Shown here piece by piece: positions 31,727-33,692 of a stretch of 64,000 nt of DNA (the stretch's first letter is position 1; every line of letters begins with the position of its first letter). Below the pieces are notes generated by a model. It was not told the DNA's origin, did no database searches, and worked only from the letters and a program-made list of their open reading frames with translations. The translations under genes were made by a program, and so were the position numbers. Origin of the DNA: Amphiscolops sp. MND2022. Its lineage: Eukaryota. The DNA lies in NCBI GenBank assembly GCA_964187785.1, contig OZ076409.1, positions 11,038,001-11,102,000 of the forward strand. The letters run 5' to 3'.

Positions 31727-32998
31727 TAAGACAGAACCGGGTTGAATAATTCAATTATCAAAACCGGAAAACTGACAAAAGTCGTTGTATTAATTCAATC
31801 TTTATCAAAGTAAAGGTATGGGATTAGTGATCTTTTTTACAGGAATATAGCTATATATACTCCTAAAAAGATGACACTCACATTCCACAAATTCTTTGAT
31901 CAAGAAAACATCATATAACTATGGCCTCAACGGGTCATGTGACAAGCGTTATTACAGCATCGGGTAGGGTGTTCAACACTTCAAAGCAGATATTTTAGGG
32001 TGATGTCCCGATAGGGAAAATTCCTAATTTCAGGGTAGTCCTTAGGAATTCAACATCAAAAGAATGATATTTAAAAGGGTACACAAGCAGCACCTTCAAG
32101 TGTCATGTTTATAAACATCATCAACATTATCCTGTCAACAAATACCAATGTCTATTGAAGGAATGCAAAAGGCATCTCTTCGGAATGTGCTTGTGACACG
32201 CGTTACCACGCGCCTATTTTCCAACGTGAGTAGGAACTAGATTAAATATTACATGATCAGTTCTGCTTAAAATAATACAGCATTATTAAAATAACACTTT
32301 CTGACAATGCCGAAAATGGACAAATCCGTTTTATTAATACAGCACTATAATAAAAGAGAGTAAAAGCCTTATTCGGCTTTTGAGTGAGTACTAGGTTTAT
32401 TAAGCTCGTTGCGCGGCATTGGGGCTTTCATTCATTATTAAGAGTACATTTACAGTAATTTACGATTAGTACACCCAATTAACACACATACAGGCTATTC
32501 CAACGAAGTGGCCGGAATCGGCCGTTTGACTAAAAGGCACAATTATTGAGTCAATTGGCCATACTCGGCCATTACATAATCAGAGTGGTATGACTTATAG
32601 AAAAGGAGCAACGTGATTGGCTAAGGAGTTGAGCTCAAGTGACGTCTCCGGAAAAGGAGTTTCGTTCACTTGAACTCGTTTCCTTTCTACTGCACAGCTA
32701 CATTGTCACGTATTACGTTTACAATAGCAAAGCGCCTTTCAATCTCTTGAAGTTACAAATACACTATTTGAATCTTCAAATGTGACTTTTAACAGACTAA
32801 TTTTACATGTGCAAGTATATATATATATCAAAACTAACAACATTAACAAACATATCATGTATTGAATAACAAAACAGCATGAAAGTTCTAAGTTTGTAAA
32901 TTATCCCGATTAATAAATGGGTAATGTTCCGGGTACGAATTCCTGTCCAGTTGCCGACGTTGTCACACTCGTACCGTCACAGGCGACAGCCTGCGACA
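31159..32998 (-). repeat. 3' LTR (1840 bp)
   Basis: Direct repeat of 45637-47474, differing by roughly a dozen substitutions and one 2-bp (TA)n indel. Confidence 0.97.
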
Positions 32999-33692
32999 CT
33001 GCGGGAGTAATAAAAAGAAAACAGCCGGCGTTAAGTCCGTTCTCGTACGCTTCCTTCCTAAGCCTGGTGATGTGCTCAGGCTCATCTCTGGGTGTGGATC
33101 GCTGCATGTACCATTCCACCTTCTCGTTCTTGATCGAGTCCACTGAACGGCCGCAAACCATGCATCCCGTATAAGGCACCGCGCTGACATTTTGATAGGG
33201 CACTGTGTTTTGCACATGGTAGGACGCATGGAAGTTACTCGTGATTGACTGTGCAAGGGGAGTGTCCAAGCTTGGCCCTTTCTCGTGTTCCGGAGGTGAC
33301 ATTGGCGATTCTAGGACTGGCATTATTGTGTTACAGAGCTCTATGCGTTTCTTTTTGATTTTCCTTGGCGGGGCATAACACATTTCCCTGTCAAAGTATT
33401 TAATGCCTAATTTCGGTGTCGTTCCTTCTTCCACATAAGACGTACTTGGCCCTGCTCTCGCTTCGTCTTCGGGTTCATCCATGGTCATCATCCTGCCCCC
33501 GATTAGCACGGGACTGCAAGTAACTTCCCTTTCAATCCGGGCAATTAGCTGTTCGGTGTCTGTCGAACAGTCGGTCTCCCAGTCTGAGGATTCTTCTTCA
33601 CTACTGGATATGTAGATTACTGATTTGCTAGAATCATCGGATTCATATTCCTCAAAGTCAAACAACTTTCTTGAGAGGTTGAACTTACTCAT
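32910..33692 (-). CDS. Accessory ORF3 (260 aa from ATG 33692), unknown function, ends 89 nt inside U3
   Basis: Intact ORF with an acidic N-terminus, NLS-like PPRKIKKKR and a CMVC motif. No evident signal peptide or TM helix. C-terminus is conserved in the solo LTR at 57022-57110. Confidence 0.8.
   Translation of the reverse strand: MSKFNLSRKLFDFEEYESDDSSKSVIYISSSEEESSDWETDCSTDTEQLIARIEREVTCSPVLIGGRMMTMDEPEDEARAGPSTSYVEEGTTPKLGIKYFDREMCYAPPRKIKKKRIELCNTIMPVLESPMSPPEHEKGPSLDTPLAQSITSNFHASYHVQNTVPYQNVSAVPYTGCMVCGRSVDSIKNEKVEWYMQRSTPRDEPEHITRLRKEAYENGLNAGCFLFITPAVSQAVACDGTSVTTSATGQEFVPGTLPIY

Follow-up and report, generated by a model that had tools for sequence, protein, structure and literature searches.

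A conserved accessory reading frame that runs into the 3′ LTR of Ty3/Gypsy retrotransposons in Amphiscolops, and its candidate regulatory motifs

The window analysed here, the whole 64,000-nucleotide stretch of Amphiscolops sp. MND2022 contig OZ076409.1, carries on its minus strand a 16.3-kb LTR element (element A), bounded by a 3′ LTR of 1840 nt (31159-32998 (-)) and a 5′ LTR (45637-47474 (-)) that are 99.2% identical over 1845 nt, have TG...CA ends and are flanked by a 5-bp target duplication. Element A is a Ty3/Gypsy LTR retrotransposon, assigned on the basis of its gag, with a CCHC knuckle (44510-46204 (-)), and of its pol (39213-44411 (-)), which is split into two ORFs in this copy and follows the order protease, RT, RNase H, integrase; the element is young. 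The gag frame starts inside the LTR, the end of the 5′ LTR supplying its first 189 codons (45637-46204 (-)), and continues through the LTR end and PBS, a layout common to element A and to the family of a solo LTR further along the window. Antisense ORFs (34701-38987 (+)), including what we take to be a BED-finger-like stretch, lie between pol and a third sense frame, ORF3, in a region that is also conserved in the solo-LTR family (family B); they stand back to back with ORF3 at a distance of ~1 kb, and the spacer holds three ATGGCG words (34049-34142 (+)), presumably YY1-like. An exact 93-nt tandem duplication (31 codons; window 41111-41303) is present in pol between RNase H and integrase. Element A is inserted in a repeat that also occurs at 26189-26667, a ~5-kb repeat is found twice in window 22228-30623 with copies ~4980 nt apart, and 1230-3134 (+) holds reverse-transcriptase ORFs that are broken and, judged by eye, come from a non-LTR element.

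ORF3 (32910-33692 (-)) encodes an acidic protein of 260 aa, mostly disordered in the model, and its final 89 nt lie in the 3′ LTR, so that the start of the 5′ LTR likewise holds the last 29 ORF3 codons; the ORF and LTR coordinates agree in this with the original prediction, which had also proposed that the first 89 nt of the solo LTR code in the same frame with the same stop. That solo LTR (55621-57110 (-); 1490 nt), which has its own 5-bp target duplication, does carry an ORF3 tail (57110-57022) together with a decayed gag start near 56147, the first residue of the tail being L because the first base of that codon is flank. As gag also starts within the LTR, both LTR ends are coding, as had been suggested. 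Full-length relatives of the solo LTR do have an upstream counterpart of ORF3: ORF3-like sequence lies outside the LTR in 16 of 30 loci, with one further locus in which the match is confined to the LTR part; an open family-B ORF of 278 aa shares 28% identity with ORF3 (E 7e-26), and many family-B copies possess long open frames across the ORF3 core. The extent of the overlap is fixed, with a stop 28-29 codons into the LTR in all 20 subfamily representatives (30-100% identity to ORF3) and 28-31 residues past the LTR-start motif in 82 of the 85 database homologues that carry this motif. Tandem arrays of ~2.2-kb units, comprising an LTR, PBS, 5′-truncated ORF3 and the next LTR (L077-L080; G000 C11 50.41-50.43 Mb; C12 32.89 Mb), are non-autonomous deletion derivatives. 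An origin of these units as copies of spliced or subgenomic RNA was rejected, the family-B junction lying after the PBS at short microhomology with the ORF3 start removed; no splice junctions were present among the junctions of short LTR-ORF3 units inspected, and ten further short LTR-ORF3 stretches proved to be local duplications or uninformative.

Comparison of the window ORF3 with four subfamilies gave dN/dS values of 0.10, 0.12, 0.07 and 0.10, with dS near saturation for the last two. A search of the 1.07-Gb genome of the same organism produced 8054 candidate ORF3 matches, and no internal stop interrupts 131 of the best-scored 147, a selection biased to good copies; in a set with the same bias, a single open frame extends from the N-terminal SIM-type motif to the LTR part at 109 of 120 loci. 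The 20 representatives used throughout are natural copies, one per 90% identity group, with four of the 22 loci screened dropped as having no full ORF. Its motifs are kept down to ~25% identity, and these comparisons show ORF3 to be a genuine accessory gene that purifying selection maintains across a large Gypsy clade.

Within the LTR part, codons 241-260 behave as though conserved as protein, with pN/pS of 0.36 and 0.31; among the 20 representatives all four codons occur at G240 and at each of the P, T and P positions of the tail, and in distant families the DNA identity over codons 241-260 is not above that past the stop. Codons 232-239 behave rather as a nucleotide signal, judging by a pS of 0.15 in family A against ~0.7 elsewhere and by V232 and A237, each written with one and the same codon in all 20 representatives. 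Of the two stretches cited earlier as conserved protein, Q...P.T.P stands, as a P-x-T-x-P tail, whereas SQA.ACDG is mostly the LTR hairpin signal read in frame, with largely frozen synonymous sites and protein-level conservation at G240. The original prediction raised the possibility that conservation is limited to att-site nucleotides; nucleotide-level constraint is seen at codons 232-239, and the limitation fails for codons 241-260 and for ORF3 as a whole. The related view that the frame is a by-product, either a remnant of env or conserved through DNA signals of the LTR terminus, describes those eight codons in its DNA-signal form; for ORF3 as a whole it is refuted by the dN/dS near 0.1, and with motifs conserved to ~25% identity and no hydrophobic segment in the protein we find it hardly credible.

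Overlapping codons 232-240, LTR nt 1-24 (32975-32998 (-), with a match in the 5′ LTR of element A at 47451-47474 (-)) likely form a 10-bp hairpin or palindrome with a 4-nt loop. The predicted fold has an energy of -16.9 kcal/mol, with z of -2.3 and -2.9 for the two LTRs of element A, and the terminal fold of the decayed solo LTR (z 0.7) does not stand out. Across the 20 representatives, 97.5% of hairpin cells pair, compared with 22.5-66% in slid controls, and the changes are one-sided wobbles (G-C/G-U or A-U/G-U) or fall in the loop; no two-sided covariation was found among these 20 DNA sequences, and column shuffles reached the paired percentage in 500 of 500 rounds. In four related proteins A235 and A237 are altered jointly, as by a C-G to U-A swap, and 15 proteins alter A235 alone in a pair-breaking manner; the corresponding DNA was not found in the organism's own genome at strict thresholds. 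Some 30 LTR-terminal and polypurine-tract nucleotides likely bear three codes at once. No purine tract adjoins the 3′ LTR in the window's branch (window 32999-33009 (-)): the last 11 nt before the LTR hold 4-6 purines in 8 of the 20 representatives, those of this branch, and 8-9 in the other 12. This branch is young and abundant, and its lack of a tract is relevant to the way in which plus-strand synthesis is primed.

The encoded protein has a pI of 4.8 (median 4.6 across 94 homologues), and its best 19-residue hydropathy is 1.46, a value above 1.6 being reached in 2 of the 94, so that by hydropathy a transmembrane or fusion segment of the kind expected of env is absent from ORF3 and from 92 of 94 homologues; its description as acidic, CxxC-bearing and free of env features is upheld. 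Near the N-terminus, residues 25-34 (33591-33620 (-)) form a SIM-type motif, in which serines and acidic residues come after a hydrophobic core; the motif recurs in 79 of 94 homologues against 2% of shuffles and lies in a disordered region (pLDDT <50). SIMs have been described as a hydrophobic core with an acidic or phospho-serine tail, with IVISDS in ICP0, Daxx and IE2, and at motif level the ORF3 segment fits this definition and resembles IVISDS, as given in the available part of that account (PMC3174244). The 15 homologues that miss the pattern, some of them truncated, include whole distant lineages, of P0232 type (P-I-Y-L-S-S-D) and of P0255/P0304/P0306 type (S-Y-x-S-S-D), in which the hydrophobic core is partly lost and S-S-D/E is retained. 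Distant homologue P0391 has no N-terminal SIM-type motif and a similar one at residue 187, and four of 37 longer distant proteins match the pattern, near the N-terminus or at a relocated site; P0299, P0300 and P0303/P0437 apart, most of them show no match. Since distant lineages keep only part of the core, what is conserved may be an acidic kinase site instead of a SIM.

Two further motifs lie in the disordered part. A conserved [S/T]P-x-SPP motif (residues 128-134; 33291-33311 (-)), which we take to comprise candidate proline-directed phospho-sites, is present as [S/T]P-x-S-x-[P/D] in 88 of 94 homologues. The NLS-like motif of the original prediction does exist in ORF3 as a basic stretch (residues 110-116; 33345-33365 (-)), but it is not conserved, K[KR]x[KR] being lineage-specific and found in just 19 of 94 homologues; a psi-K-x-E site is likewise lineage-specific (29 of 94). 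We therefore infer a nuclear location of the product from the SIM-type motif instead of from an NLS. The host genome contains a SUMO-like gene with one intron, and a complex prediction that paired ORF3 residues 15-60 with exon 1 of this gene, an incomplete SUMO chain, scored 0.13 with a mark of 0.34 and counts neither for nor against binding. At two other loci (L145 and L147), host ORFs of ~500 aa encode several ubiquitin-like units followed by another domain, reminiscent of an ADP-ribosyltransferase fold.

Towards the C-terminus, a CxxC followed by a two-helix hairpin (residues 177-221; 33030-33164 (-)) is the sole confidently modelled part, with pLDDT of 74-86 and 83-92 in two AlphaFold2 models; the protein is otherwise mostly disordered, and the models as a whole are of low confidence, with mean pLDDT of 51.5 and 56.9. 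CxxCG occurs in 86 of 94 homologues, the Cys/His residues are conserved, and the helical hairpin includes an invariant Arg. These residues, with the conserved SP sites and the G-U-tolerant hairpin conserved in the LTR, are what might be expected of a Rev- or CERV-like factor that binds element RNA, possibly through the hairpin at the LTR end, and helps the genomic RNA to be exported or packaged; CERV of Cer1 is itself described as a nuclear, phospho-regulated, Cys-rich LTR-retrotransposon accessory protein needed for genomic RNA export (PMC10309623, available part). ORF3 is, however, acidic (median pI 4.6) and has no conserved basic patch, CERV is a 517-aa protein of three folded domains made from a spliced mRNA (PMC10309623), and the junctions of short LTR-ORF3 units gave no evidence of splicing for ORF3; such a role is in our judgement unlikely.

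Searches for ORF3 homologues returned 207, 71 and 166 proteins, and clustering at 50% identity gave 605 groups; E<=1e-30 applies to 63 of these, and the best 150 of the 605 were considered. The organism's own genome and protein databases were both covered, and both hold homologues. The family likely extends to other genomes, because homologue P0182 reaches 47% identity at best in the own genome and P0411 and P0341 were not found there at strict thresholds. Pfam had nothing for ORF3 and sub-threshold hits only for 24 family members, among them weak zf-C2H2_12 matches far below the cut-off (best E 0.043); no GDSL or DEDDy enzyme domain was matched in 24 of 24 members at E<=1, the model being mostly disordered. 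A PDB sequence search gave a best E of 0.24, Foldseek with the low-confidence models gave no match at E<=0.001 in the PDB or a viral library, and the ESM Atlas offered no usable match for ORF3; the best VIA-align result for the model (Z 6.0 over 46 residues) is a generic two-helix hairpin. Homology to Tas or Bet was likewise without a Pfam, PDB-sequence or viral-fold match, the last with the same low-confidence models. Because both ORF3 models are of low confidence, the absence of a fold match says little.

The acidic disordered region and small Cys domain, together with the dyad-symmetric site conserved at the LTR start, also suit a sequence-specific transactivator resembling Tas, acting on the LTR-terminal palindrome or an internal promoter, perhaps with the antisense protein, in which the apparent SIM would be part of an acidic activation domain; foamy-virus Tas is reported to activate both the LTR and the internal promoter (PMC6950176, available part). 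Against this, no known DNA-binding family is matched beyond the weak zf-C2H2_12 hits, and dyad variation of G-C/G-U type is more in keeping with a single-stranded than with a double-stranded site, so that we consider a Tas-like function quite unlikely.

Upstream of ORF3 lies a candidate internal core promoter (33728-33761 (-)), with an initiator placing +1 at 33759 and a DPE-like 5-mer at +28 to +32 (33732-33728), the position that the DPE rule prescribes. Within the 150 nt before the ATG, an initiator with a DPE-like 5-mer at +28/29 is found in 17 of the 20 representatives (exactly +28 in 14; strict pattern in 14), compared with 1.8% per sequence and a maximum of 2/20 in 300 rounds of dinucleotide shuffling, figures to be read with the pattern having been relaxed after a first look at the data and with the 20 representatives being related to one another. 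Other spacings from 20 to 40 never exceed 3/20; the initiator-DPE spacing is fixed while the distance to the ATG ranges over 67-133 nt, and the DNA between and beyond the two words differs among representatives. In the B/C branch, the candidate initiator sits within a CGCCAT/CGCCAC context, and a conserved A-rich box (33700-33717 (-)) lies 20-60 nt before the ATG in 15 of 20 representatives. The spacing is an observed property of the family, and at motif level it suggests that ORF3 is likely transcribed from its own initiator-DPE promoter; poly(A) words occur at LTR nt 598 and 664, and an unspliced mRNA of ~1.4 kb would run from 33759 to one or other of these signals. Contigs of 1.0-1.8 kb that contain whole ORF3 homologues fit such a short mRNA but are not counted as evidence.

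A separate promoter would permit expression out of phase with gag-pol, as might serve a negative or copy-number regulator, which would either attract SUMO-dependent repressors to the element or compete with the element's proteins, and SIMs are known in repressors too, in SetDB1/Wde (10.1101/533091) and Daxx (PMC3174244), according to the available parts of these sources. However, numerous subfamilies that are young and have dozens of near-identical copies contain an intact ORF3, which is compatible with repression without suggesting it, and we hold this function to be quite unlikely.

The account we favour, to which we give an even chance, is that ORF3 is separately transcribed from the internal initiator-DPE promoter and encodes a SUMO-binding nuclear regulator that favours expression of the element. 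The disordered acidic protein would use its N-terminal SIM to dock on chromatin or silencing factors that carry SUMO, and phosphorylation of the SP-x-SPP motif and of the serines beside the SIM might tune this docking; the CxxC/helical-hairpin domain may bind zinc and confer specificity for a partner protein, for itself or for element nucleic acid. In net terms, SUMO-dependent silencing would be relieved or the LTR activated. In flies, piRNA-guided silencing involves the recruitment of SetDB1/Wde by SUMO-SIM contacts, as described in the available part of that study (10.1101/533091), and this role makes the SUMO-SIM contact a plausible target for a protein of ORF3 type. The proposed reason for the constant length of the LTR overlap is that the frame passes through the polypurine-tract position and the constrained hairpin before ending in the P-x-T-x-P tail. 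The analyses constrain the direction of the effect to neither activation nor repression, and that ORF3 favours expression is offered as a proposal. A bolder version, possible but doubtful, holds that a complex-retrovirus layout was built independently in this Gypsy clade: the internal promoter would drive an early gene through the polypurine-tract position and hairpin, its product being an IE2/ICP0-like SUMO-pathway antagonist that lifts silencing, and an antisense gene derived from a transposase would work back to back with it.

ORF3 is old, clade-wide and strongly selected. For the majority of additional ORFs in LTR retrotransposons, to our knowledge, no role has been assigned. It provides three testable handles: the predicted start site, the SIM-type motif and the terminal hairpin. 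Should SUMO binding and relief of silencing both prove true, ORF3 would be an LTR-retrotransposon anti-silencing protein directed against the SUMO branch of transposon repression, and the layout would represent convergence on the foamy-virus arrangement outside retroviruses. The literature covered, mostly titles and the opening of abstracts, contains no description of ORF3 or of a SIM-bearing retrotransposon ORF. The original prediction of a real non-env accessory ORF, placed like nef, bel2 or sag and conserved in a divergent family, is sustained; the reasons offered for it, namely the motif and the NLS, are those revised above.

Among known systems, HIV nef and MMTV sag are ORFs that reach into U3, with products that act at membranes; the analogy to ORF3, which has no hydrophobic segment, is positional only. 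ICP0 of HSV-1 and IE2 of HCMV share with ORF3 a hydrophobic core and serine/acidic motif of SIM type in a viral regulator (PMC3174244, available part), a likeness of a short motif alone, drawn from sequence, since ORF3 has neither a RING domain nor homology to either protein. CERV of the C. elegans element Cer1 is, like ORF3, a non-env LTR-retrotransposon regulator that is Cys-rich and bears a phospho-site; it is translated from a spliced mRNA that shares exons with gag, whereas ORF3 is half its length at ~260 aa, acidic, mostly disordered and extends into the LTR, the two being compared by description in the available part of the source (PMC10309623). Additional sense ORFs of rotifer and other elements are similarly conserved family-wide in the position of env, and, as described in the available parts of PMC5408684 and PMC7264820, these are env-like with TM segments or encode a GDSL esterase or DEDDy nuclease, typically from spliced messages, in contrast to the ORF3 of element A with its lack of a Pfam match or TM segment, its candidate promoter and its LTR overlap. 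ORF3 can be placed among the conserved additional ORFs, a broad class (PMC7264820), and, from its predicted protein, is neither an env-like nor an enzymatic ORF3 of rotifer type, as these are set out in PMC5408684. The foamy virus tas/bel2(bet) block is alike in that its accessory genes lie at the 3′ end, in its internal promoter, for which ORF3 offers a candidate, and in a bel2 that ends within U3 (PMC6950176, available part), and a 3′ accessory ORF reaching into U3 is present in 20 of 20 representatives; it is unlike in that no sequence or fold similarity to ORF3 was found, and in that the host element here is a Ty3/Gypsy retrotransposon with no env. ORF3 thus appears to resemble the foamy virus block by analogy of layout, and, with no homology found, is not classed there.
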